DNA of 64,000 nucleotides from Candidatus Levyibacteriota bacterium (GTDB lineage Bacteria > Patescibacteriota > Microgenomatia > Levybacterales > UBA12049), in contig JBDRBE010000001.1 in NCBI GenBank assembly GCA_043823085.1, positions 47,267 to 111,266 on the forward strand, given 5' to 3'. A program made the position numbers and the translations under genes. The notes beneath the pieces were generated by a model. It was given only the letters and a program-made list of their open reading frames with translations. It searched no databases and was not told the DNA's origin. This document shows, one piece after another, positions 6,979 to 62,182 of the stretch (positions within the stretch are counted from its first letter, which is position 1; every line of letters starts with the position of its first letter).

Positions 6979-7215
6979 TTATCTCTTTTTCTTTGTTTTT
7001 GATATTTTCTGGTTATTAACCAGATATAGGAGACCAAGGAGAAAAGCCATTCCGACTGCAACGACAAAAACAAATGATTTCAGAGAATTGGTAGACATAA
7101 TATTATCTTGATAGGCTTTAAAAAGAATAAAAATACTAAAAGCAACTAAAAGAATTAAAAAGGCAATTACAGCTTTAAGAGTTGATTCATGATCTGATTT
7201 CTTAAAAGCTTTCAT
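6979..7215 (-). CDS. small two-TM membrane protein
   Basis: 78 aa, two hydrophobic helices, Lys-rich C-terminus. Confidence 0.3.
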   Translation of the reverse strand: MKAFKKSDHESTLKAVIAFLILLVAFSIFILFKAYQDNIMSTNSLKSFVFVVAVGMAFLLGLLYLVNNQKISKTKKKR

Positions 7216-7229
7216 TTATGAAGACCTGA

Positions 7230-7703
7230 TTATCGGGTAATTTCAATAATTGGTTCTATTTCTCCAACTGCTGACACTGTAACTCTGCCATCGCCATTTT
7301 TTACTACGCTATAACCCGTAGAATATGTTGTACAATCTGTTATTTCAGTGCCACCACCTGTCTGTGGATCCGATGGTAAAGCTGGAATATAATTAGGTAT
7401 TAAATCCGCACATATATCTGCGCCCGCATTTGATATTTCTGCAGCTGTAGTTAAGGGTATACCTACTGGCAAAACTCCCTGATTTTCGGCTGAATACTGT
7501 CCAATGGCACTTAGTATTTGAGCGATATCACTTTTTCTTTTGGTATCATTTGCCATGCCAAATTGTCTGGCAGGATTAACAGCTATTAAAACTATTGAAA
7601 GAAGGATTGCTAAAATTCCGATGACAACAAGAAGTTCAATTAATGTGAAGCCTTTATTTTTTTTACATTCCTTTGGGCAGCTTTTCATGTCTATAAAAAC
7701 CAT
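7230..7703 (-). CDS. type IV pilin (prepilin-type N-terminal cleavage/methylation domain)
   Basis: KNKGFTLIELLVVIGILAILLSIVLIAV is the canonical class III signal (G|FTLIELL). 157 aa. The real start may be the internal Met (MKSCPKECKKNKG|FTLIE). Confidence 0.8.
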   Translation of the reverse strand: MVFIDMKSCPKECKKNKGFTLIELLVVIGILAILLSIVLIAVNPARQFGMANDTKRKSDIAQILSAIGQYSAENQGVLPVGIPLTTAAEISNAGADICADLIPNYIPALPSDPQTGGGTEITDCTTYSTGYSVVKNGDGRVTVSAVGEIEPIIEITR

Positions 7704-9571: not shown

Positions 9572-11530
9572 TTATGGCGAATAATTAATAGTTATATCTT
9601 CTAATACCGGTGTCTGCGTTGAATCTTGAGTTGACAAATATGCCTTATATTTAAAACAGCGGCCAGGATTCTTATAATTTCCGTTCTCAATCACAGGTAT
9701 GGCAGATGACGTTGTAAAAAACGTTGTAGAGGTGGCGTCTGGACCAATAAAATTAAAAGTTGCTCCGCTGCAACTGCCGCCAACGGCATCTGCCACTGCG
9801 ACTTGGAATTTGATATTTGTTTGAGATGGTTTAAGAAAGTTGACTGAAAAGTTATTGAATGCTATCGAATAAGTGGCGTCAAATATCTTTGATTCAAATG
9901 TGCCCAGCGGTGATAATCCTCCTCCCGGTCCGCCAGCGATTATTTGAAACTCCTTACTTGCATTATCTGTCAAAATATAAGAATACGCATCTCCGTCGTC
10001 TTCAAGAACTGAAGCAATAGCATTTATACTTGTTGCTCCGTTGGGATTTGTTAATCCGCCGCAACGAAATGGAGGAAAGTCAGGAACTTTAGAAAGATTA
10101 AGAACCTGATATTGCTCCCCGCCAGATCCAACTATAATAACCATGTTTCCCGACACCGCCACTACTCCTTTGGGATTCATTGTGCCGGTATTGTAAACAC
10201 CAAGAGGTACTGGCAATGTTGTTATCTTACTGGAAGTATCGAGAATAAAAAAATCATTTTCCGGAGTTGACGCTTGTTTTGTCACTAAATAAACTCTAGT
10301 CCCGGTCGGATTAACAAAAAGGTCTGTTGCTTGTCGATCGTTAACATGCGCCGAAGAAACTTTTAAAATATTTAATGGATCGCTGATGTCATATATTGCC
10401 AACTGCTCCGTGGTGCTTGCTATGACTACATAAGCGTAATTTCCAATAACTATAACTCTTTTACCTGTTCCCGCGAGATCAATATGACCAAGCTCATTCC
10501 GAGATCCTGTTCTTTCTGAAAGATCAAACGTATAAAGCCTATTGCCAACCGTAACAAAACCAATATCTTTTCCAAGAATGCTGTTATACGCCACAAAAAC
10601 GCTAACGCCGCTTCCGCCTCCTGAACTGGCAAAAGTACCAACTTGGGCATAAGGTTTACTTGAAATCTCAATAATATCCACTGTTAATTTTGGGTGGTCT
10701 GATGTTAAATATGCATAAGAACTGTCTGTATAAATTCCATAAGTTTTATAGTTATTATAAGATGCATCATTTACAGCCACAGGCGGCGAAGAATTACTTA
10801 TTGCCATACTGTCCATAGAATTACCCGAAGCATTTCCTCCAGTTGTCGTATAAGCATGTCCTTGAACAGCGCTAATGGCTGTTGTTATACCCTGTCCAGG
10901 CAAGTCAAGCGGGTTAATCGAAAGATTGGGAGAACACCAATTTCCACTTCCGCCTGTGCCCAAAATTACTTCGCCTCCCCACATATTCGCAATAGTTACT
11001 CCATCTTTTATCCCAGAATTAAAATCGTCTTCTGTAGTTTCGGTATAAGTTATATTTGTATGGCGAGTAATATAAACCACCGAAGAAACAGTAGTTGCTA
11101 AGGGCGTATTCCAAGAAACATTAACTTGGACTTTTTTTGTTGAAGGGTCAATAATACCGCCGGTTAAAACAATCACACCGGATAAGTCCCTGTAAGCATC
11201 GCTAATAACTATCTGCCGAGTAAAATTATCAATTGTTTCCGAACCAGCAGAAAGAAACCAAGTTGTCCCCAAAGCTTCCGCATGAAAAGTTCCGTTAACC
11301 GCAAAATTGTTCCAATCTTTGTCGCGAACAATACGCACTGCTTCTTGAGCTTCTTTCACAAGCAGAGTTGCTCTTGTTCTTTGATCCTGCTGCGGTCTTC
11401 CTTCTTTTGAAGCCATAAAACTTGTAAAAAGAGCTGGTAAAAGGAGCGAGGCAACACCAATCGCCACTAAAAGTTCTATTAGCGACTGCCCTTTTCTCGA
11501 TTTAAAAATTGCAATCATCAAGCAATGCAT
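9572..11530 (-). CDS. large pilin-like protein (prepilin N-terminus plus LVIVD beta-propeller repeats), candidate pilus-associated adhesin
   Basis: 652 aa. N-terminus GQSLIELLVAIGVASLLLPALF is a prepilin-type signal. The central region has repeated YAYV.../LAIYDISDP/VYLV segments like LVIVD repeats. Confidence 0.6.
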   Translation of the reverse strand: MHCLMIAIFKSRKGQSLIELLVAIGVASLLLPALFTSFMASKEGRPQQDQRTRATLLVKEAQEAVRIVRDKDWNNFAVNGTFHAEALGTTWFLSAGSETIDNFTRQIVISDAYRDLSGVIVLTGGIIDPSTKKVQVNVSWNTPLATTVSSVVYITRHTNITYTETTEDDFNSGIKDGVTIANMWGGEVILGTGGSGNWCSPNLSINPLDLPGQGITTAISAVQGHAYTTTGGNASGNSMDSMAISNSSPPVAVNDASYNNYKTYGIYTDSSYAYLTSDHPKLTVDIIEISSKPYAQVGTFASSGGGSGVSVFVAYNSILGKDIGFVTVGNRLYTFDLSERTGSRNELGHIDLAGTGKRVIVIGNYAYVVIASTTEQLAIYDISDPLNILKVSSAHVNDRQATDLFVNPTGTRVYLVTKQASTPENDFFILDTSSKITTLPVPLGVYNTGTMNPKGVVAVSGNMVIIVGSGGEQYQVLNLSKVPDFPPFRCGGLTNPNGATSINAIASVLEDDGDAYSYILTDNASKEFQIIAGGPGGGLSPLGTFESKIFDATYSIAFNNFSVNFLKPSQTNIKFQVAVADAVGGSCSGATFNFIGPDATSTTFFTTSSAIPVIENGNYKNPGRCFKYKAYLSTQDSTQTPVLEDITINYSP

Positions 11531-19775: not shown

Positions 19776-20026
19776 GGTATAAATCACCTCCTCCCGTCTC
19801 CGCTCTTTTTAGCAGATCCGAGAGTTATTCTCGGGCAGCTTTAGCAGAATTAATTTAATGTTGTAATAATTTTTATATTTTGTCAAGATTTTTTCTTTGC
19901 TTCAAAACTAGTCGTTTAGATTGACAGCTGGGCAAAAATCACAGAGGCTATTTTTTCATTTTTTATTATAATTTTATTACAAAAATTAAAAATTTAAAAT
20001 TGAAAATTAAAAATTAAATGAAGAAT

Positions 20027-21265: not shown

Positions 21266-21364
21266 ATTAAATAATTTTTAATTTGAAATTTTAAATCAAA
21301 TCTGAATGTTTAAAAATTTAAATTTTGAAAATTTATTAAAAATTAGAAATTGAAAATTTTAAAT

Positions 21365-21976
21365 TTAAGAAATTAATTCTTTTTTAATTGTTGGAATTAA
21401 TTTCTTTATTGCCTTATACCTATGATTGTATAACTTTTGTTCTTCCTGCGTCAATTCGCTTTCGTGATAATATTTTTTAATTTTTGGAAGATAAAAAAAC
21501 GAACGAAAAGGATAACCTTTAACGTGTTTTAATAACGGTTCTTTAGCAATAATTCCCTCAATCTCACCATTGATCGACCAAACTTCGCCATTTGGCAGCG
21601 CAAACGTCACCACATCTTTAAAAAATGCTTTTCTGTTATTATCCGGTAACTCTTTTGAAATTTTAGAAAGTTGAGAAAGAATTTCTTGGTCTGTCATCTC
21701 ATATCCTTGCCATCTTCTGGTTTTAACTCCCAACTGACCTTTTAGGGCTTCTATTTCTATTCCTCCGTCATCGGCAATGGTTGGCAAATTAGAAAGCTTG
21801 GCAAAAAATTTTGCTTTTTTTTGCGAGTTTTCTTTATAAGTTTTTCCGTCTTCTTGGATATCCTCTGTAATATTTAAATCGAAAAGTGAAACGATATCAA
21901 ATGGCAAGTCCGAAAGAAAATTTTTAAATTCTCCCAGTTTCCCCTCATTTCTTGTCGCAATAAGAAGTTTTAGCAT
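21365..21976 (-). CDS. rdgB: non-canonical purine NTP pyrophosphatase (RdgB/HAM1 family)
   Basis: 203 aa. LLIATRNEGKLGEF and IADDGGIEIEAL motifs of Ham1/RdgB. Confidence 0.85.
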   Translation of the reverse strand: MLKLLIATRNEGKLGEFKNFLSDLPFDIVSLFDLNITEDIQEDGKTYKENSQKKAKFFAKLSNLPTIADDGGIEIEALKGQLGVKTRRWQGYEMTDQEILSQLSKISKELPDNNRKAFFKDVVTFALPNGEVWSINGEIEGIIAKEPLLKHVKGYPFRSFFYLPKIKKYYHESELTQEEQKLYNHRYKAIKKLIPTIKKELIS

Positions 21977-29811: not shown

Positions 29812-30933
29812 ATGCTCATTTTAGGAATTGAAACTTCTTGCGACGAAACATCAGCGGCAATTGTGGAAGACGGAACAAAAGTTCTTTCTAATGTTATTTC
29901 TTCATCTCTTCCTCTTCACGTTAAAACAGGCGGAATAATTCCGGAAGTTGCCGCAAGACAACAAATTAAATATATTATTCCTGCAATCAATCAAGCTTTA
30001 TTAGATGCATTTGACGTGGGAAGTGAGAAGTGGGATCTTGATGTTTTGAAATCAAGAAATCTTGACGTCAAGAATTCAAGATCAAAAATATCTCACCTCT
30101 CACGTCTCATTTCTAAAATCGATGCCATTGCCGTCACTGTTGGTCCGGGGCTAATTGGTTCACTTCTTGTCGGCGTTGAAACAGCCAAAACTTTAGCCTA
30201 TGTTTGGAAAAAACCGATAATACCGGTCAATCATTTAATCGGCCACATCTACGCTAACTTCGTTAGCGAAATTTCAAATTTCAAATTTCAAATTTCAAAT
30301 TCGTCAATTACTTTCCCCGCTCTTGTTTTAATCGTTTCCGGCGGACATACTGATTTACTATTGATGAAAAATCATGAAAAATTAAAGTGGCTGGGCGGAA
30401 CCCGTGACGACGCAGCCGGCGAAGCATTTGATAAAATCGCAAGACTTCTTGGCCTTCCTTACCCCGGGGGACCAATAATTGAACAAAAAGCAAAAAACGG
30501 AAACCCTAAAGCTTTTAATTTTCCAAGGCCGATGATTGATTCAAATGATTTTGATTTTAGTTTCAGCGGTTTAAAAACAGCAGTTTTACGCGAAACCAAA
30601 ACAATTAAACAATTAAGCAATGAAACAATCGCTAATCTTTCCGCTTCTACCCAACAAGCCATTGTTGACATTTTAGTTGCCAAGACTTTAAAAGCCGCAA
30701 AAGAATATAATGTTAAATCAATTCTTCTTTCCGGTGGCGTCTCGGCGAATGATAAATTACGAGAACAATTTCAACTAGATGCTAGACGCTACTTACTAGA
30801 TGCTAATATTTTTTATCCCGATAAAAAATATTGTACAGATAATGCTGCTATGATCGCCTCGGCCGCATTCTTCAACTACAAACCCCTAGACTGGAGAAAA
30901 ATTACCGCTAATCCTGAACTTTACTTTATTTAA
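29812..30933 (+). CDS. tsaD: tRNA N6-adenosine threonylcarbamoyltransferase TsaD
   Basis: MLILGIETSCDETSAAIV N-terminus and the Kae1/TsaD fold. Contains the in-frame tandem 7-mer repeat (30271-30300) encoding NFKFQISN. Confidence 0.9.
   Translation: MLILGIETSCDETSAAIVEDGTKVLSNVISSSLPLHVKTGGIIPEVAARQQIKYIIPAINQALLDAFDVGSEKWDLDVLKSRNLDVKNSRSKISHLSRLISKIDAIAVTVGPGLIGSLLVGVETAKTLAYVWKKPIIPVNHLIGHIYANFVSEISNFKFQISNSSITFPALVLIVSGGHTDLLLMKNHEKLKWLGGTRDDAAGEAFDKIARLLGLPYPGGPIIEQKAKNGNPKAFNFPRPMIDSNDFDFSFSGLKTAVLRETKTIKQLSNETIANLSASTQQAIVDILVAKTLKAAKEYNVKSILLSGGVSANDKLREQFQLDARRYLLDANIFYPDKKYCTDNAAMIASAAFFNYKPLDWRKITANPELYFI
30271..30300. repeat. tandem heptanucleotide repeat (ATTTCAA)x4 plus 2 nt, in-frame inside tsaD
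   Basis: Exact 7-mer copies at 30271, 30278, 30285 and 30292. 30 nt in total, so the frame is preserved. Confidence 0.8.
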
Positions 30934-34540: not shown

Positions 34541-37500
34541 ATGTCAGATGTTAGAATTTTAAATGTTGAACAAAGCAAAGCGGTTAAACACGAAGTTGGT
34601 CCTCTTTTAATTATCGCCGGAGCAGGATCCGGAAAAACTACTGTTATTACCGAGCGAATAAAACATTTAATTCTTAAAAAGAATATTCTTCCTCAAAATA
34701 TTCTTGCTCTTACTTTTACCGAAAAAGCGGCACGCGAAATGGAAGAACGCGTTGATATTGCCATGCCTTACGGCTACACTCAAATGTGGATTTCTACTTT
34801 CCATGCTTTTTGCGACCGGATTTTGCGAAACGAAGCAATTCATATCGGGCTTAATCCTTCTTATAAATTAACAACAGAGGCCGAATCTGTAATGTTTTTG
34901 CGCCTTAATTTATTTAAATTTGACTTTAATTATTTTCGTCCGCTTGGCAACCCCAATAAATTTTTAGAAGGACTTTTGCAGCATTTTTCAAGACTAAAAG
35001 ACGAAGACATTAACCCTTTGCAATACCTTGAATATGCAAAGGGAATTTTAAATGTCAAATTTCAAATATCAAATAAAAAATTAGACGCTAAACGCTATCC
35101 GCTAGACGCTGACGACGATGAGGTTAAAAAGAACATTGAACTTGCAAATGCCTATAAAACCTACGAAGATTTGAAAGTAAAGGAGGGCATTATGGATTTT
35201 TCCGATCTTATATCCAACACCTTAAAACTTTTTCGGCAAAGAAAAAATATTTTAAAAAATTACCAAGAACAATTCAAATATATTCTGGTTGATGAATTTC
35301 AGGATACCAACTTTGCCCAAAACGAATTAGCAATTTTACTTTCGGGAAGTAAGAAAAACATTACGGTTGTTGGCGACGACGATCAGGCAATTTACCGCTG
35401 GAGAGGAGCGGCAATTTCAAACATTATTCAATTTCGAAAACATTTTCCAGATGCAAAAGTTATAACTCTGATTAAAAATTACCGCTCGACAAAAGAAATC
35501 CTTGATAAGTCTTATGCTCTTATTCAAAATAATAATCCCGATAGATTAGAAGTAAAAGAAAAAGTAAATAAAAAACTTGTTTCAATGAGGAAATTAAAAG
35601 GAGAACAAATTGAATTTCTATTTGCTCCAAGGGTTGAAGACGAAGCAGATCTTGTTGCTAAAAAAATTGAAGAACTCACTACGAGCCACGCGCCATCTGC
35701 AAATTACCACTTTCACGATATTGCCATTCTTGTTCGTGCTAACGACCATTCTCAAGCTTTTACAAGAAGTTTGGAAAGACATAATATCCCTTTCCAATTT
35801 TTAGGCCCCGGTCAGCTTTTTAAAAAAGAAGAAATAAAAGATTTAATTGCCTATTTAAAAGTTCTTTATAATTTCGAAGACTCCGCATCGCTTTATCGCA
35901 TAATGAATATGCCAATTTTCAAATTTGAAGCAATAGAAATTGCCACTCTTTTAAATTATTCAAAAAGAAAAAACCTCGGTCTTTTTAAGACATTAGAAGT
36001 TGCCGCGCAAAAAGATCCGCCAGCTGGCGGAGAAATTTCTTTCAAAGAAAAAACTAAGGAAAAAATAAAACATATTTTTGAAATGATAAACAAACATTTA
36101 AAAAGGGTCCCCAAAGACACTGCTGGTCAAATCCTTTATTATTTTCTACAAGATACCGGTCTTCTCAAAGAAAGCTTGAATATCAAATCACAAAGTGATG
36201 AAAAAAAATATCAAAACATTGCGAGGTTCTTTGAGAAACTAAAAGCTTTTGAAGCAGATCATGAAGATGCTTCTATTTTTGCTGTAGTTGACTGGATTGA
36301 TCTTTCAATGCAAATGGGCGAAAGTCCGCTTGCTCAAAATTCGGACTGGCAGGATATTAATGCCGTTAATATTCTAACAATTCATTCAAGTAAAGGACTT
36401 GAATTTCCAATTGTTTTTTTAGTTAATCTTGTCACGCAAAGATTTCCAACCAGAGACAGAAAAGAACAAATTCCAATCCCGCAAGAGCTAATTAAAGAAA
36501 TTCTGCCGGAGGGAGATTATCACTTAGAAGAAGAGCGCCGTTTATTTTATGTTGGCGCAACCCGTGCAAGAGATTTACTTTTTTTAACAGCGGCAAATTT
36601 TTACGGCGAAGGAAAAAGAGAAAGAAAAATTTCTCCCTTTGTTTATGAAATGCTGGGAGAAAAAACAGTTGAAAATCAAACACTGAAACAATCAAACACT
36701 GAAACAATCAAACAATTATCTCTTCTTGCATGGTCAACACCAAAACAAGAAATTCCAGCTTCCAGCTTCCAGCTTCCAGCTTCGCCACCCCTCACTTATC
36801 TTTCTTACTCGCAGATTCAAACTTTTGATATCTGCCCCCTGCATTACAAACTTAAATATATTCTAAAAATCCCGACTCCGCCTTCTTGTGCCCAAAGCTT
36901 TGGAACAAGTATACACAGCGCTCTTCGCGATCTTTATCAAAATTTAATTGGAGGATTAAAAATTTCCGAAAAAGAGCTTTTAAGGATTTTAGAAAACGAT
37001 TGGATAAACGAAGGCTATCAAAGTAAAGCGCACGAAGAAAAAGCATACGAGGGCGCAAAAAAAATAATTTTAAATTATTTTGAAAATAATTTTAACCCAA
37101 AAAAAATTCCGGCTGCTCTTGAAACTCCTTTTAAATTCAGTTTAAGAAGACAAGAAGTAAATTCACCAAGCTTAATGGTTGGCGGGAGGATTGATAGGAT
37201 TGATGAAATTGATAATAATAAAATTGAAATTATTGATTATAAAACCGGCAATAATGTCCCCGATGAAAAAAAACTGGCGGATGATTGGCAATTAACCTTT
37301 TATGCTTTGGCTGCAACAGAAGTTAGAGATAATTTATTAAATAAGAAACCCGAGAACGTTACTCTTTCTCTTTATTATTTGGAACCGAATATAAAACTTA
37401 CAACTATTAGAACAAGAGAACAATTGGAAGAGGCAAAAAAGAAAATTTTGGAAAAAGCAGATGAAATTGCAAACAGTGAATTTAAATGCAGTCAAAACAA

Positions 37501-37546
37501 TCTTTGCAAAACCTGCGAATACAAAATCCTGTGCAATACAAGCTAA
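34541..37546 (+). CDS. UvrD/PcrA-family DNA helicase fused to a C-terminal RecB/Cas4-like PD-(D/E)XK nuclease with Cys cluster
   Basis: 1001 aa. Walker A IIAGAGSGKTTVITERI, a DEFQDTN Walker B-like motif and UvrD motifs. The C-terminus has IDRIDE...IIDYKTGN (RecB-family nuclease) and C-x(n)-CKTCEYKILC. Confidence 0.85.
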   Translation: MSDVRILNVEQSKAVKHEVGPLLIIAGAGSGKTTVITERIKHLILKKNILPQNILALTFTEKAAREMEERVDIAMPYGYTQMWISTFHAFCDRILRNEAIHIGLNPSYKLTTEAESVMFLRLNLFKFDFNYFRPLGNPNKFLEGLLQHFSRLKDEDINPLQYLEYAKGILNVKFQISNKKLDAKRYPLDADDDEVKKNIELANAYKTYEDLKVKEGIMDFSDLISNTLKLFRQRKNILKNYQEQFKYILVDEFQDTNFAQNELAILLSGSKKNITVVGDDDQAIYRWRGAAISNIIQFRKHFPDAKVITLIKNYRSTKEILDKSYALIQNNNPDRLEVKEKVNKKLVSMRKLKGEQIEFLFAPRVEDEADLVAKKIEELTTSHAPSANYHFHDIAILVRANDHSQAFTRSLERHNIPFQFLGPGQLFKKEEIKDLIAYLKVLYNFEDSASLYRIMNMPIFKFEAIEIATLLNYSKRKNLGLFKTLEVAAQKDPPAGGEISFKEKTKEKIKHIFEMINKHLKRVPKDTAGQILYYFLQDTGLLKESLNIKSQSDEKKYQNIARFFEKLKAFEADHEDASIFAVVDWIDLSMQMGESPLAQNSDWQDINAVNILTIHSSKGLEFPIVFLVNLVTQRFPTRDRKEQIPIPQELIKEILPEGDYHLEEERRLFYVGATRARDLLFLTAANFYGEGKRERKISPFVYEMLGEKTVENQTLKQSNTETIKQLSLLAWSTPKQEIPASSFQLPASPPLTYLSYSQIQTFDICPLHYKLKYILKIPTPPSCAQSFGTSIHSALRDLYQNLIGGLKISEKELLRILENDWINEGYQSKAHEEKAYEGAKKIILNYFENNFNPKKIPAALETPFKFSLRRQEVNSPSLMVGGRIDRIDEIDNNKIEIIDYKTGNNVPDEKKLADDWQLTFYALAATEVRDNLLNKKPENVTLSLYYLEPNIKLTTIRTREQLEEAKKKILEKADEIANSEFKCSQNNLCKTCEYKILCNTS
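35054..35074. repeat. tandem 7-mer (NTCAAAT)x3 inside the helicase gene, encoding VKFQISN
   Basis: gtcaaat ttcaaat atcaaat. Related to the tsaD repeat unit, and it encodes the same KFQISN peptide. Confidence 0.6.
36674..36714. repeat. tandem 16-mer (AATCAAACACTGAAAC)x2.5 inside the helicase gene
   Basis: Exact copies at 36674-36689 and 36690-36705, plus a partial copy. Encodes TLKQSNTETIKQ. Confidence 0.8.
36754..36784. repeat. tandem 7-mer (TCCAGCT)x4 inside the helicase gene
   Basis: Four exact copies at 36754-36781. Encodes PASSFQLPAS. Confidence 0.8.
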
Positions 37547-41435: not shown

Positions 41436-41942
41436 TTATACTCCATTTTCCAACACCTCGTCAATGCTTTGTTTAATCGTCTCCCAATTAAATCCTTTGC
41501 TTGCCAAAAACCGCCCCAGTTTCTGATAAATCTCAAGTTTTGGCAGAGTTTGATATTTTTTAATCTTTTTTCTTATTAGCTTTTTCGCCATTTCTGTTTC
41601 ATTGAAAATTGAAAATTGAAAATTGAAAATTTCATCAATGATATCGTCCGCAATTCCCTTTCCCTTCAGTTCAATTTTTATCAGCCGCATCGACCGCGGT
41701 TTAAAATTTGTTCTACTCTCAATCCACCACCTGGTAAACTCCGCATCATCAAGAAATTTATGTTCTTTAAGCTTACTAATTATTTTTTCGATTATTTCTT
41801 CCGGAGCCTTTTTGCTTTTCAACTTTTCTCTTATTTCTTGCTCTGACCGAGGACGGTAGGAAAGAAACTTAAGGGCACTATTATATTCGCGTTCGAATAA
41901 ATGCGAACGCTTATTAATGTTTCGCATTATAATATTTCTCAA
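41436..41942 (-). CDS. recX: recombination regulator RecX
   Basis: 168 aa. Three-repeat helical RecX pattern (LSYRPRSEQEIREKL ... FLDDAEF). Contains the in-frame tandem 7-mer repeat 41602-41630. Confidence 0.8.
   Translation of the reverse strand: MRNIIMRNINKRSHLFEREYNSALKFLSYRPRSEQEIREKLKSKKAPEEIIEKIISKLKEHKFLDDAEFTRWWIESRTNFKPRSMRLIKIELKGKGIADDIIDEIFNFQFSIFNETEMAKKLIRKKIKKYQTLPKLEIYQKLGRFLASKGFNWETIKQSIDEVLENGV
41602..41630. repeat. tandem heptanucleotide (TTGAAAA)x4 in-frame inside recX
   Basis: Four exact copies. Encodes NFQFSIFN on the minus strand. Confidence 0.8.
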
Positions 41943-46936: not shown

Positions 46937-47052
46937 AATAAAAATCTCAAACCTCAAAACGCAAATCTCAAAACTACAATGCAAATCTTAAATCTTGATA
47001 TTTTGAGATTTACAGACGTAGATTTGACATTTGAGATCTAAGATTTGAGATT

Positions 47053-47976
47053 CTATACTGTTAGTGAAATTCCTTTTTCGCGAAGTTTTTCTTCAATAAT
47101 TGAAATGGATTTTCCGCCCATATTGCGCATACTCATCAAATCTTTTTTGGTTGTTCCCAAAAGCTGACCCAATGTTTCTATCCCGCCGTTTCTTAAACTA
47201 TTATAAATTCTTGTCGGTAAATCCAACTCATCGATTGTCAATTTTAATATATCTTCCGAAATTGAAGGACTAATGGCAACTCCTTCGTTTGGCATAGGCG
47301 CTTTTGGTTCATAAATTTGTAAAAAATAAGAGGCAATAATTTTGGCCGCTTGGGTAATAGTTTCTATGGGTGTTACCGTACCGTTTGTCCAAACGTTCAT
47401 GATTAATTTATCAAGATTTGTTTGTCTTCCAACACGTGTAGCAGAAACTTCATAATTAACGCGAGTAACAGGCGTAAAAATTGCGTCTGTTGGAATAACT
47501 CCTAAAGTACTTACTTTTCTATCTTCCGCCAAAGAATAACCAAATCCTTTTTCAATCGTTAATTCCATCTCGAGTTTTGCCTTTTTATCCGAAAGTGCTC
47601 CCAAGTAATGATCTTCATTAGTAACTTCTACCGATTCGGGTAAATCAAGGTCTTTTGCCTTAATTTCTTTGGGGCCATTAACCGAAAGTTTAACAATAGC
47701 GCTGTTTTTTGAATCAAGCAGTTTAAAATTTATTCCTTTTATATTAAGCAAAAGATCAACAACATTTTCCTTTAATCCCGGTATTGTTGAGAATCTGTGT
47801 TTTACCGAAGTTATTTTAACCGAGGTTACAGCCGCACCAGGAATTGAGGTCAAAAGAACTCTTCGCATAGCATTTCCAATTGTGTGACCAAAACCAGGCT
47901 CTAATGGCTCGATAACAAATTTCCCAAAATCCTGGGATGATGTTTCTTCTTTAACTTTAAAAATCGGATCAGTCAT
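47053..47976 (-). CDS. rpoA: DNA-directed RNA polymerase alpha subunit
   Basis: N-terminal domain FVIEPLEPGFGHTIGNAMRRVLLTSIPG and C-terminal alphaCTD helix-hairpin-helix. 307 aa. Confidence 0.9.
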   Translation of the reverse strand: MTDPIFKVKEETSSQDFGKFVIEPLEPGFGHTIGNAMRRVLLTSIPGAAVTSVKITSVKHRFSTIPGLKENVVDLLLNIKGINFKLLDSKNSAIVKLSVNGPKEIKAKDLDLPESVEVTNEDHYLGALSDKKAKLEMELTIEKGFGYSLAEDRKVSTLGVIPTDAIFTPVTRVNYEVSATRVGRQTNLDKLIMNVWTNGTVTPIETITQAAKIIASYFLQIYEPKAPMPNEGVAISPSISEDILKLTIDELDLPTRIYNSLRNGGIETLGQLLGTTKKDLMSMRNMGGKSISIIEEKLREKGISLTV

Positions 47977-49606: not shown

Positions 49607-49686
49607 AATAACTAGCGTTTAGTTTACTAGCGTCTAGCGGTTAGTTGATTTCTTGAACTAGACGCTAAACGCTAATCTTCTAGACG

Positions 49687-49905
49687 CTACCTGTACCTGT
49701 AAACTATTCTTCCTTTTGTTTTATCGTATTCTGTCATTTCGACTCGAACTTTATCCCCCGGCAAAATCTTAATGAAATTCATTCTCATTTTGCCGGATAA
49801 ATGACAAAGCACAATATTTCCATCGGAAAGTTCTACTCTAAAAAGAGTATTCGGAAGAGATTCCTTAACTACTCCTTCAACCTCAAACGATCCCTGATGA
49901 ACCAT
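49687..49905 (-). CDS. infA: translation initiation factor IF-1
   Basis: 72-aa S1-like OB fold ([31 protein letters not shown]). Confidence 0.9.
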
Positions 49906-50053
49906 ACAATAAAAATTTCTAATTACTAATTGACCTAATGACTAATCAATTTTCTAAATTACCAATTTCAAATTTGGGATTTGATTAGAAATTAGACATT
50001 AGAAATTAGAAATTAATTGAACCTATTATAGCAAAATAAACAGAACTCTGCAA

Positions 50054-55523: not shown

Positions 55524-55709
55524 TTACCAGGTCGCTTTATAAACCCCCGGAAGTTCTCCTTTCATTGCTAATTCTCTAAAGCAGATACGACAAATGCCAA
55601 AACGTCTCATATAAGCTCTTGGTCTGCCACAAAGTTTACATCGATTCTTGTTTCTGACCGCGAATTTTTGTTTCTTTAAAAGATTAACAACGTTTGATTT
55701 TTTTGCCAT
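55524..55709 (-). CDS. rpsZ: 30S ribosomal protein S14, type Z (zinc-binding)
   Basis: 61 aa. [25 protein letters not shown]. Confidence 0.9.
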
Positions 55710-55735
55710 ATTTTTGATTTTTGATATTTAATTTT

Positions 55736-56308: not shown

Positions 56309-56619
56309 ATTCTTAATTTTTTGTCTTTTTCAATTGAAAATCCGACCCTTGTTGCCAAATGACATTTCGGACAAACCAATACAACGTTTGTAATAGACAT
56401 TGGTTTGGTTATGGTTATAATTTCCGATTTTTGATTCTGTGCCCTTGCTTTTAAATGCCTTTTGTACTGATTAATTCCGGCAATCAAAATAAGACCTTTT
56501 TTAGAAAAAACTTTTTCTATTTTTCCGCTTTTTCCTTTATCTTTTCCCAAAACTACTTTGACTTCATCTCCTTTTCGCAACTTATAACTTATAACTTGTA
56601 ATTTATAACTTTTTTTCAT
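56281..56619 (-). CDS. rplX: 50S ribosomal protein L24 with C-terminal C4 zinc-ribbon extension
   Basis: [25 protein letters not shown] (KOW). The C-terminus has CPKC...CKKC. The N-terminus contains the TTATAAC tandem-like repeat ([12 protein letters not shown]). Confidence 0.85.
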
Positions 56620-60270: not shown

Positions 60271-60303
60271 AACTTATAATTAGTAATTAGTAATTAGTAA
60301 TTT

Positions 60304-60597
60304 TTATGTGCCTGCTTCAAAAAGATCAATTTTTTGACCTTTCAAAAGTTCTACAACCGCTTTTTTAAAATCTGCTTTTTTGACTTCTTTTCTTCTTATT
60401 CCAACTCTCGCCGATCTTCCTTTAATAATAATCGTTGAAACTCCTATCACTTTTACTTTAAATTTTTCTTCAACTGCTTTTTTAATTTCTTTTTTATTTG
60501 AATCTTTAGCTACCAAAAAAGTAAATTTTCCCTTACCAACATCATTCATTGATTTTTCCGTAATAATTGGCTTAATAATAATTTGTCCTGCATCCAT
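60304..60597 (-). CDS. rplW: 50S ribosomal protein L23
   Basis: IIKPIITEKSMNDVGKGKFTFLVAKDSNKKEIKKAVEEKFKVKV. Confidence 0.9.
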   Translation of the reverse strand: MDAGQIIIKPIITEKSMNDVGKGKFTFLVAKDSNKKEIKKAVEEKFKVKVIGVSTIIIKGRSARVGIRRKEVKKADFKKAVVELLKGQKIDLFEAGT

Positions 60598-61242: not shown

Positions 61243-61402
61243 CTTGCTTCTCAAATCGCGGGGAGCCCGAAGCGGGTGACGCGAGCCAGAGACCTTGCTG
61301 GCACGCAGTCCGCCAGTTGGCGGATTAGCCGTACGAGTACCAGCGAGATGGCGAGCGGCAGGACCCGCGAGGGCGACCTTTGATTTTTGATTTTTGATTT
61401 TT
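61243..61402. repeat. 160-nt GC-rich insert (about 65% GC) between rplC and rplD, with internal palindromes
   Basis: It contains cccgaagcgggtgacgcgag (61265-61284, identical to 58692-58711), the palindrome ccgccagttggcgg, inverted ends tcgcgggg...cccgcga, and then (GATTTTT)x3. Confidence 0.6.
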
Positions 61403-62182
61403 TTAACTGGCATTTTCATCCTCTTTACCATCCGTAGCTTTAGCGGAGGATGGCTTTACCTCCTTGCCCTCTGAAGCTTTAGCGAAAGAGGGCTTTTTTT
61501 CTGGCTCTTTTGATTCTTCAATTAAAGCTTCTTTGTAAAGCGGTACGAACTTTTTATCTTCCCCGACTTTTTTAATTGAAACAAGGCTATTTTTTGGCCC
61601 AGGAACCAATCCTTTTATTAAAACTAAATTGTCTAAGACATCCGCTACAATTTGGTTTTTGATTGTCACATTTTCATGCCCCATTCTCCCTGCCATTCTT
61701 TTTCCTTTGTAAACTCTTCCCGGTGTAGTGGTTTGACCGATTGACCCCGGCGCTCTTTCTCTGTCTGACTGACCGTGAGTTCTTGGTCCGCCTTTAAAAT
61801 GATGTCTTTTAACAACGCCTGCGTAACCTTTTCCTTTGGAAACGCCTGAAACATCAACAATATCTCCCGGCTTTAATACATCTTGAGCATTGATAGTCTC
61901 TCCAAGTTTTGGAGAATCGGAGATTTCGTTTACTCTTACTTCGCGCAAAAAATGAGGAGCAACTTTTAAGTTTGCTCCTTTGATATGCCCTTGCAATGCT
62001 TTTGACGGATGCTTTTTAGTTCCAAGACCAATTTGAAGGCTGTTATAGCCATTTTTATCTTTATTCTTAACCATGGCAACAACATTACCGGAAACATTAA
62101 TTTCCGTCACAGGTATTCTTGTTCCATCTTCCAAAAACTTTTGTGTTTGTTTTTGTTTTATTCCAAAAATTTGATTAATCAT
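61403..62182 (-). CDS. rplC: 50S ribosomal protein L3 (with Lys/Glu-rich C-terminal extension)
   Basis: MINQIFGIKQKQTQKF ... GVSKGKGYAGVVKRHHF. Confidence 0.9.
   Translation of the reverse strand: MINQIFGIKQKQTQKFLEDGTRIPVTEINVSGNVVAMVKNKDKNGYNSLQIGLGTKKHPSKALQGHIKGANLKVAPHFLREVRVNEISDSPKLGETINAQDVLKPGDIVDVSGVSKGKGYAGVVKRHHFKGGPRTHGQSDRERAPGSIGQTTTPGRVYKGKRMAGRMGHENVTIKNQIVADVLDNLVLIKGLVPGPKNSLVSIKKVGEDKKFVPLYKEALIEESKEPEKKPSFAKASEGKEVKPSSAKATDGKEDENAS

Follow-up and report, generated by a model that had tools for sequence, protein, structure and literature searches.

Heptanucleotide tracts in housekeeping genes

The window, by which we mean the whole stretch of DNA analysed here, comprises 64,000 nt (about 35% G+C) of Candidatus Levyibacteriota, which belongs to the Microgenomates of the candidate phyla radiation, and the elements in question are short tandem arrays of heptanucleotides located in its genes and in the spacers between them. 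The host genes of the coding tracts are tsaD, recX, a gene for a UvrD-type helicase-nuclease and rplX, none of which is of the dispensable surface, host-interaction or DNA-modification type. TsaD is universally conserved and is expected to be essential. For the TsaD and RecX proteins of the window, NCBI has entries with 100% identity from a Levyibacteriota metagenome-assembled genome, and each of the two is the sole member of its own 90% cluster; an exact look-up of the TsaD protein retrieved no contig. The closest genome match for the helicase, with 68-70% identity, is another Levyibacteriota genome. According to Pfam, the window also holds serS, a Ham1-family gene and ribosomal protein genes. 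The three genes that carry most of the coding tracts are the following.

29812-30933, plus strand: tsaD (Pfam TsaD).
34541-37546, plus strand: helicase-nuclease gene, 1001 residues (Pfam UvrD-helicase, UvrD_C, PDDEXK_1).
41436-41927/41942, minus strand: recX (Pfam RecX HTH1-3).

The coding tracts, some of them delimited with Tandem Repeats Finder (TRF), are these.

30269-30301, plus strand: tsaD loop tract, perfect (AAATTTC) x4.7, 33 nt, encoding ISNFKFQISN, residues 153-164 (perfect-run scan, TsaD alignment).
30772-30807, plus strand: tsaD C-terminal-site tract, degenerate, ACGCTAG/ACGCTAA family, encoding QLDARRYLLDAN, residues 321-332.
35044-35074, plus strand: helicase site 1a, AAATGTC AAATTTC AAATATC AAAT, encoding NVKFQISN (TRF period 7, x4.4, 83% matches).
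35081-35113, plus strand: helicase site 1b, degenerate (ACGCTAR) tract, encoding LDAKRYPLDAD.
36674-36714, plus strand: 16-mer x2.6, alternatively 8-mer x5.4, in the interdomain linker of the helicase-nuclease (TRF, 100% matches).
36753-36783, plus strand: helicase site 2, perfect (TTCCAGC) x4.4, 31 nt, encoding IPASSFQLPAS, interdomain linker.
41601-41631, minus strand: recX linker tract, perfect, x4.4, 31 nt, ATTGAAA on the forward and TTTTCAA on the coding strand, encoding IFNFQFSIFN (EIFNFQFSIFN).
56577-56604, minus strand: (AAGTTAT) x4 at the N-terminus of ribosomal protein L24 (rplX).

All the tracts named in an earlier reading of this DNA (the original prediction) exist within 1-3 nt of where it had placed them, with the encoded peptides it had given and with gene identities that Pfam confirms; its observation that similar tracts recur in several genes and spacers, including the flanks of serS, holds as well. 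The placeable coding tracts are all located outside conserved regions. In TsaD the loop tract, with the encoded peptide EISNFKFQISNS, follows directly C-terminal of the HxxxH motif and forms an insertion; in RecX the tract is interdomain, between HTH2 (residues 65-104) and HTH3 (115-158), as is helicase site 2, between UvrD_C (to 685) and PDDEXK (from 754); and helicase site 1 is found in an alignment-variable segment.

Period-7 specificity and spacer bias

Among the tandem repeats of this DNA, units of 7 nt are strongly favoured, and an array has about 3-6 of them. Counting perfect repeats of at least 2.5 copies gives seven with a period of 7, 3-4 with periods of 5 and 6 and zero with periods of 8-15, and the perfect tracts of the window span 3.4-4.7 copies. 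Ten regions with at least 85% self-match over 21 nt were detected at lag 7 and none at lags 5, 6 and 8-15, while 20 triplet shuffles of the window yielded no such lag-7 region. Lag 7 yielded 14 regions in a looser scan (24-nt window, 75% match), where the other lags had 0-2, apart from nine at lag 14, which are the harmonic of lag 7. The excess is likewise confined to lag 7 in related Microgenomates loci. Non-coding DNA makes up 9.5% of the window and holds eight of the 14 tracts of the looser scan, which makes tracts about 13 times as dense per nucleotide in spacers as in genes. Tandem 7-nt copies beyond a random model, the over-representation of period 7 and the mostly non-coding location, all three of them seen here, are the marks of the heptanucleotide class of long simple sequence repeats (SSRs). 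The tracts located in spacers or next to gene ends are listed below.

19980-20019, no strand: intergenic AAAAATT/AAAATTG units, about x5.4-5.7, directly 3' of the serS stop codon (TRF).
21271-21366, no strand: degenerate A/T-rich period-7 array filling the spacer between serS and the Ham1-family gene, x13.7, 64% matches (TRF).
About 46937-47056, no strand: inverted heptamer array pair, (AAATCTC)n then (GAGATTT)n, in the rpoA-rplQ spacer.
49607-49700, no strand: inverted ACGCTAA-family array pair between infA and rpmJ; its 3' end overlaps the last codons of infA (49687-49905).
49983-50016, no strand: intergenic (ATTAGAA) x4.9 between map and infA, adjoined by weaker period-7 tracts at 49914-49975.
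55709-55732, no strand: intergenic (GATTTTT) x3.4, 3' of the rplE stop codon.
60274-60306: period-7 tract, which takes up the place expected for a ribosome-binding site.
61375-61404, minus strand: (AAAAATC) x3.4 directly 3' of the rplC stop codon, part of the rplC-rplD spacer or of a doubtful N-terminal L4 extension.

Between the last of these tracts and the conserved L4 domain lies a GC-rich segment of about 130 nt (61243-61375, minus strand), either spacer or N-terminal L4 extension (VALAGPAARHLAGTRTANPPTGGLRASK...), and its fold is not unusual (z -0.9).

Tracts at orthologous sites

The closest 120 TsaD proteins, which are 58-69% identical to that of the window, contain 7-residue-periodic peptides at loop 1 and at the C-terminal site. 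Residue identity at lag 7 is 0.198 at loop 1 (n=111) and 0.247 at the C-terminal site (n=113), against about 0.055 at other lags in both cases, and it is 0.056 in the rest of TsaD. The linker between HTH2 and HTH3 of RecX behaves similarly (0.16, n=115 orthologues, against 0.075 in an N-terminal control region), with IFNFQFSIFN, ISNFQFPISN, MINDEGLMIN and IHNSEFIIQN as typical peptides. The comparison of orthologues that the original prediction had proposed thus finds periodic peptides at the same sites, with heptamer tracts at the DNA level. Its description of the tracts as inserted is apt for the tsaD loop in so far as the tract is a 10-residue insertion relative to the solved Thermotoga maritima TsaD (6NAK), with the alignment gap exactly at the tract; the insertion is not recent, since homologous heptamer tracts occupy the same site in orthologues of about 60-70% identity. 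As more than 100 TsaD and RecX orthologues have homologous tracts in the corresponding loop or linker, neither the tsaD nor the recX tract is a recent insertion. At the C-terminal site, T. maritima TsaD has a segment of nearly equal length. The alignment to this solved protein was used in place of an AlphaFold2 model of TsaD (16-sequence alignment), which was poor, with a mean predicted local distance difference test score of 55.9.

At the DNA level, the contigs of six tsaD orthologues, drawn from independent assemblies (NCBI, JGI, ENA and Logan), were compared with the window at the loop.

Window: (AAATTTC) x4.7, 33 nt.
L020: the same 33-nt tract as in the window, without any difference.
L018: (AAATCTC) x4.7.
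L019: (AAATGTC) x5.1.
L014: mix of AAATTTC/AAATCTC/AAATGTC-type units.
L015: patched (ACGCTAA) tract.
L017: degenerate (ACGCTAA) tract.

The loop and linker peptides of other orthologues can be back-translated to heptamers in the same manner: LEIGNWKLEI to (TTGGAAA), MENGKWKMEN to (ATGGAAA), SKIKNQKSKI to (TCAAAAA), ISNLKSQISN to (AAATCTC), MSNVKCQMSN to (AAATGTC), and KLNAKRYTLNA to (ACGCTAA) with TAA replaced by TAT.

In the helicase, site 1a is missing in the closest relatives, L001 and L018, and site 1b is orthologous to their (ACGCTAA) x4 tracts; L009 has a single copy at site 1 and is 7 residues shorter there than L001 and L018. Site 2 consists of an EIPA seed common to relatives followed by SSFQLPA (21 nt). 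The 16-mer at 36674-36714, in which AATCAAAC alternates with ACTGAAAC, leaves the net length unchanged relative to the closest orthologue, L001. In the helicase gene of L002 (11106-11146), (AAATTAC) x5 stands in place of about 30 nt of non-repetitive sequence in L003 (7883-8059) and L007 (7775-7951), which are about 81-86% identical to L002 across the helicase region, and the exchange adds only 3 nt. By this comparison the L002 tract is a recent birth, or a decay, at nearly constant length. Because length is nearly constant in the L002 exchange, in the 16-mer of the window compared with L001 and at the TsaD C-terminal site compared with T. maritima, variable loops seem to be overwritten by repeats and not just lengthened.

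Three further observations concern the same proteins. Compared with T. maritima TsaD, the window protein has about 32 extra residues (DAFDVGSEKWDLDVLKSRNLDVKNSRSKISHLSRLISK) within residues 57-101 (29980-30115); this insert is unique, and most orthologues have a shorter, different one at the position. Weakly repetitive stretches within it, with a period of 8 at 30048-30081 and of 7 at 30091-30109, suggest that tsaD has a third tract site. A second, GC-rich and palindrome-like type of insert, with peptides like SLRAKRSN...PRND and PPKARLAKGG, is present in the heptamer-tract loops of some relatives, namely in the TsaD proteins P0018, P0022, P0061, P0083 and P0107 and in the helicases of L002 (about 10490-10560), L003, L007 and L019 (about 7190-7260); in L019 and L002 it is placed inside the heptamer tract. 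The orthologous UvrD/PDDEXK helicase of L015 (14237-18271) has 1344 residues and includes an intein (Pfam Hint, Intein_splicing).

Concerted evolution, three-unit steps and stop codons

Where these tsaD genes share conserved codons of the four-fold type, no more than 27-39% of the third positions agree, and synonymous sites are therefore saturated. The units of the loop tract are nevertheless uniform within each of four species, as (AAATTTC) in two, (AAATCTC) and (AAATGTC), the one-base difference being present in every copy. Since passive inheritance cannot keep a 33-nt tract internally perfect while synonymous sites become saturated, the sequences argue that the tracts are repeatedly re-homogenised, that is, that they undergo concerted evolution. 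Each base of the unit is read at codon positions 1, 2 and 3 in successive units, so that a homogenised base change alters several residues at once, and this plausibly slows the drift of the units.

Alleles at one site differ by exactly 7 residues, or three units and 21 nt. They hold 1.x or 4.x copies, no intermediates were seen, and the frame is kept because the two classes differ by three units. The TsaD C-terminal site has 27 residues in 92 of the 113 orthologues and 20 in two, with a single CTAGACGCT copy kept in L014, and the lengths of TsaD loop 1 come in the pairs 15/22, 17/24, 19/26 and 26/33 residues. The original prediction had stated that four copies preserve the frame; four units come to 28 nt, a length that three does not divide, and it is through three-unit steps between alleles that the frame is kept.

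Stop codons are avoided in two ways. In tsaD and recX the coding strand bears only the stop-free orientation of the unit, and the TTCCAGC unit of the helicase has no stop on either strand. In stop-bearing units a point-mutation patch is found exactly at the copy with the in-frame stop: TAA to TAT in the ACGCTAA tracts of L001, L015 and L018, TGA to TTA in the TTGAAAA tracts of L017, L018 and L019, and TAA to CAA in the L24 N-terminal tract of the window. Programmed ribosomal frameshifting was considered as a rescue of intermediates and rejected, since A_AAT_TTC fits the pattern X_XXY_YYZ and the other units do not.

Recurrent unit families and inverted arrays

Three unit families, all of which differ from the TAACTGA and GGGNATC heptamers of other bacteria, recur at unrelated sites in a sample of about 264 kb from about 12 genomes, in which many single-site units are also present. 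The ACGCTAA family is found at both TsaD sites, at helicase site 1 and in two spacers of the window, the AAATNTC family in the TsaD loop, at helicase site 1 and in the rpoA-rplQ spacer, and the TTGAAAA family in recX, at the TsaD C-terminal site and in the serS flanks. The original prediction had also entertained a single spreading microsatellite. Several favoured families exist in place of one, along with unique, locally seeded units such as TTCCAGC; what remains of the idea is that ACGCTAA, AAATNTC and TTGAAAA recur beyond the expectation from composition.

Outside this sample, a synthetic (LNAKRYT)6 peptide gave four weak unrelated matches among 5.8 billion proteins, and thus no long arrays of that unit translated in that frame. 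Exact (AAATTTC)x4 is present in five IMG/VR contigs (L021-L025), including two giant-virus bins and one 550-kb contig, and the patched ACGCTAA cassette had no match in viral contigs.

The two inverted array pairs of the window fold into long hairpins, with an RNA minimum free energy of -45.6 kcal/mol (z -8.4) for the rpoA-rplQ spacer and -35.6 kcal/mol (z -6.2) for the infA-rpmJ arrays. Both are located inside the ribosomal-protein/rpoA operon and consist of the same unit families as the coding tracts. These hairpins might be processing sites, stabilisers or terminators.

Origin of the tracts

The original prediction proposed a contingency mechanism, in which slippage of the 7-mers would reversibly switch tsaD, recX and the helicase as an adaptive form of bet-hedging. 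A change of one unit would indeed cause a frameshift, since the unit of 7 nt is not a multiple of three and lies inside open reading frames, though this holds only in a formal sense; there is evident turnover of the perfect tracts, and neuO provides a precedent in which translation is full only with a unit number divisible by three (PMC13001214). Against this stand the 4-5 units seen here, compared with 3-53 (mode 20) in neuO (PMC13001214), and a copy number of 4.7-5.1 units that is conserved in the tsaD of four species. The tracts are located mid-gene, in loops of conserved housekeeping proteins and not in the 5' regions of surface or modification genes, and tsaD is universally conserved, whereas phase-variable genes are often non-essential (PMC11868660). 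Furthermore, the six tracts of L015 and L016, which are separate source records with 99.97% identity (four substitutions in 12.76 kb, no gaps), have the same length, although variants of low frequency within a population could escape copy-number data that consist of assembled sequences across species and this one near-identical contig pair. All of the approximately 240 orthologues are in frame, a figure to be read with the reservation that the orthologue sets were found by protein search, which frameshifted alleles would escape. The same type of tract is also far denser in spacers. We therefore consider a phase-variable function very unlikely; the tracts are probably not gene on/off switches, and unit length alone is insufficient ground to annotate genes as phase-variable. 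It is just as hard to credit that the protein is what selection acts on, favouring a repeat peptide of 7 residues with a hairpin or heptad structure, of which the DNA repeat would be a side effect. The 7-residue periodicity is conserved at the same sites in more than 100 orthologues and the T, C and G variants of the tsaD unit retain K-x-Q-I/M-S-N, as such selection would have it. The tracts, however, are perfect at the DNA level, without synonymous differences among units or between the window and L020, while synonymous sites are saturated elsewhere; none of the seven DNA sequences examined has a periodic peptide with scrambled codons; the peptides at one site are chemically unrelated between species (ISNFKFQISN, KLNAKRYTLNA, IHNSEFIIHNS and MENGKWKMEN); short repeat-free alleles exist; and the tracts are commonest in non-coding DNA. 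Together these points make protein-level selection highly improbable as the cause. Chance low complexity, which an AT-rich genome (35% G+C in the window) and mostly A/T-rich units could bring to mind, and assembly artefact are already refuted by the controls and retain practically no probability: shuffled sequence contains no tracts, period 7 alone is enriched among periods 5 to 15, a sequencing read is longer than any tract, and the tracts are present at orthologous sites in the independent assemblies. Footprints of transposon target-site duplication were also considered as the origin of the arrays; no insertion sequence was seen.

The explanation that we regard as likely is that the tracts are heptanucleotide microsatellites of the known 5-11-nt long-SSR class, generated by a mutational process that is lineage-wide in Levyibacteriota/Microgenomates, with selection acting as a filter in coding DNA. 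Within a tract, slipped-strand mispairing or unequal exchange would homogenise the units and change their number, selection would pass only three-unit changes in genes, and selection on loop length would hold the total nearly constant, with the effect that variable loops are overwritten by repeats. The tracts would thus be a mutational by-product that adds lineage-specific loop sequence and not a regulatory switch. Several observations weigh against this microsatellite explanation. Simple slippage does not account for why the period is 7, nor for arrays of about 4-5 units in spacers, where frame is irrelevant; and one ordinary slip cannot take a 1.x-copy allele up by three units, and intermediates with one or two additional units would frameshift a presumably essential tsaD. 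The three unit families each occupy 5-6 independent sites, compared with 0.1-0.4 expected from composition (P = 1e-9 to 5e-6, for families chosen post hoc), and the TsaD C-terminal site holds unrelated units by lineage, for example ACGCTAA and TTGAAAA. The neighbour-joining tree of TsaD (120 sequences, tract columns removed) is star-like, and gains and losses cannot be ordered on it. As period choice, array size, the three-unit gain and unit recurrence are unexplained by plain slippage, a motif-selective mechanism is kept alive, in which an active process with only a few heptamers to draw on would write or refresh arrays of 4-5 units (about 32 nt) in spacers and tolerant loops, in single frame-preserving steps. 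The routes proposed are templated or stuttering repair synthesis, gene conversion between dispersed arrays or a small mobile cassette, with ordinary slippage in a minor role, and the process would resemble the unexplained dispersal of short tandemly repeated repetitive (STRR), TAACTGA and GGGNATC heptamers in other phyla. Its attraction is that one templated step would solve the three-unit gain in an essential gene. ACGCTAA, AAATNTC and TTGAAAA recur at unrelated coding and spacer sites beyond composition, the peptide KLNAKRYTLNA is shared by TsaD loop 1, the TsaD C-terminal site and the helicase without any change of phase or of the patched unit, and arrays measure about 31-35 nt in coding and non-coding DNA alike. 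The L002 tract, moreover, replaces non-repetitive sequence of its 85%-identical relatives with a gain of only 3 nt, and a four-unit preference is also known for unrelated heptamers in Xanthomonas and Nostoc (PMC4692102). On the other side, the analysis turned up no enzyme or element linked to such a process, units of the unique kind have clearly grown out of local sequence, as TTCCAGC did from the EIPA codons, and the single-base variants (T, C, G) at one site fit mutation followed by homogenisation; the 1.x-copy alleles keep the same unit, as three-unit deletions predict, and the recurrence statistic is post hoc, with AT-rich stop-free units forming a restricted set. We regard active writing as possible but doubtful. 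If it is true, it would explain unit recurrence, constant array length and viable three-unit jumps in essential genes, heptamer arrays would be a systematic source of lineage-specific protein insertions in candidate-phyla-radiation bacteria, and the four-unit preference of Xanthomonas and Nostoc would reflect a general mechanism and not G-quadruplex formation.

The excess of heptanucleotide repeats in bacteria has been known since 2007 and is still without explanation. A tract that can be traced at one orthologous site of an essential gene across many species is a natural experiment on this 7-nt bias; it offers direct evidence in the form of concerted evolution, three-unit quantisation and stop-codon patching, and with it a route to study how 7-nt arrays originate, persist and turn over. 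The tracts also account for part of the extra loop sequence in the proteins of an uncultured, genome-reduced lineage.

Comparison with known repeat systems

The STRR sequences of cyanobacteria are a dispersed family of heptamers, with units that differ from those described here. Calothrix heptanucleotides are mentioned in PMC4692102. In the library that was searched, no paper on Patescibacteria, Microgenomates or Parcubacteria deals with heptanucleotide or heptameric repeats or with 7-bp tandem repeats, and no description of orthologous, concertedly evolving 7-mer tracts in housekeeping genes was found. The closest general precedent is the work on long SSRs, among which heptanucleotides outnumber the other classes in many genomes, and for which an interaction of the polymerase with 7 nt has been proposed (Mrazek et al. 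2007, as cited in PMC4679880). As far as that work is represented in PMC4679880 and PMC4692102, it agrees with the present case in that 7-nt units are dominant, over-represented and mostly intergenic, for which slippage with a 7-nt footprint was proposed. In the same accounts the genomes are large and often GC-rich (Burkholderia, Xanthomonas, cyanobacteria, actinobacteria), whereas ours is a small candidate-phyla-radiation genome with 35% G+C, and in-gene SSRs are mainly those with units that are a multiple of three, whereas here 7-mers are located inside conserved housekeeping genes.

In the neuO gene of E. coli K1, an (AAGACTC)n heptanucleotide tract lies within the open reading frame, the full length of the protein depends on the frame, and three units equal one 7-residue repeat (PMC13001214), all of which is shared with the tracts described here. 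The neuO tracts, however, have 3-53 units and vary between strains and within cultures, with about two thirds of genomes out of frame (PMC13001214), and their gene, which is phage-borne, non-essential and capsule-modifying, bears them at its 5' end, in contrast to the 4-5 units of stable length across species in the middle of housekeeping genes. The repeats of Borgs (Schoelmerich et al. 2023, PMC9879509) are similar in being perfect, fast-evolving tandem repeats that are confined to one type of genome and are present in both spacers and open reading frames, where they contribute new loop or disordered sequence that keeps the frame. They differ in that the units in Borg open reading frames are all divisible by three (PMC9879509), whereas with a unit of 7 nt only the three-unit step is divisible, and in that virtually all Borg units are unique within the genome, whereas here a few units recur.

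In copy number and in their bias towards spacers, our tracts are similar to the dispersed families TAACTGA, GGGNATC and STRR. The TAACTGA repeats of marine Beggiatoaceae, cyanobacteria and Bacteroidetes (MacGregor 2015, PMC4679880) consist of one or a few favoured heptamers that form sets of 2-6 copies at numerous loci; repetition of related heptamers is rare, the spread is unexplained, and stop-bearing units are translatable in one orientation only. The unit sequences are nevertheless different, the sets are almost all intergenic and often located just upstream of start codons, and orthologous coding tracts under concerted evolution were not described. The GGGNATC repeats of Xanthomonas and Nostoc (Rehm et al. 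2015, PMC4692102) are likewise a heptamer family dispersed through the genome, with about four units in non-coding DNA near gene ends; conserved coding sites are not reported for them, and the over-representation of heptanucleotides and the preference for four units were described there (PMC4692102). In that system the units are G-rich and form G-quadruplexes, to which the four-unit preference was credited. The units described here are A/T-rich and have no runs of G, and therefore G-quadruplexes cannot explain their preference for about 4.5 units. Arrays of A/T-rich units that show the same preference, for about 4-5 copies, challenge the G-quadruplex explanation.

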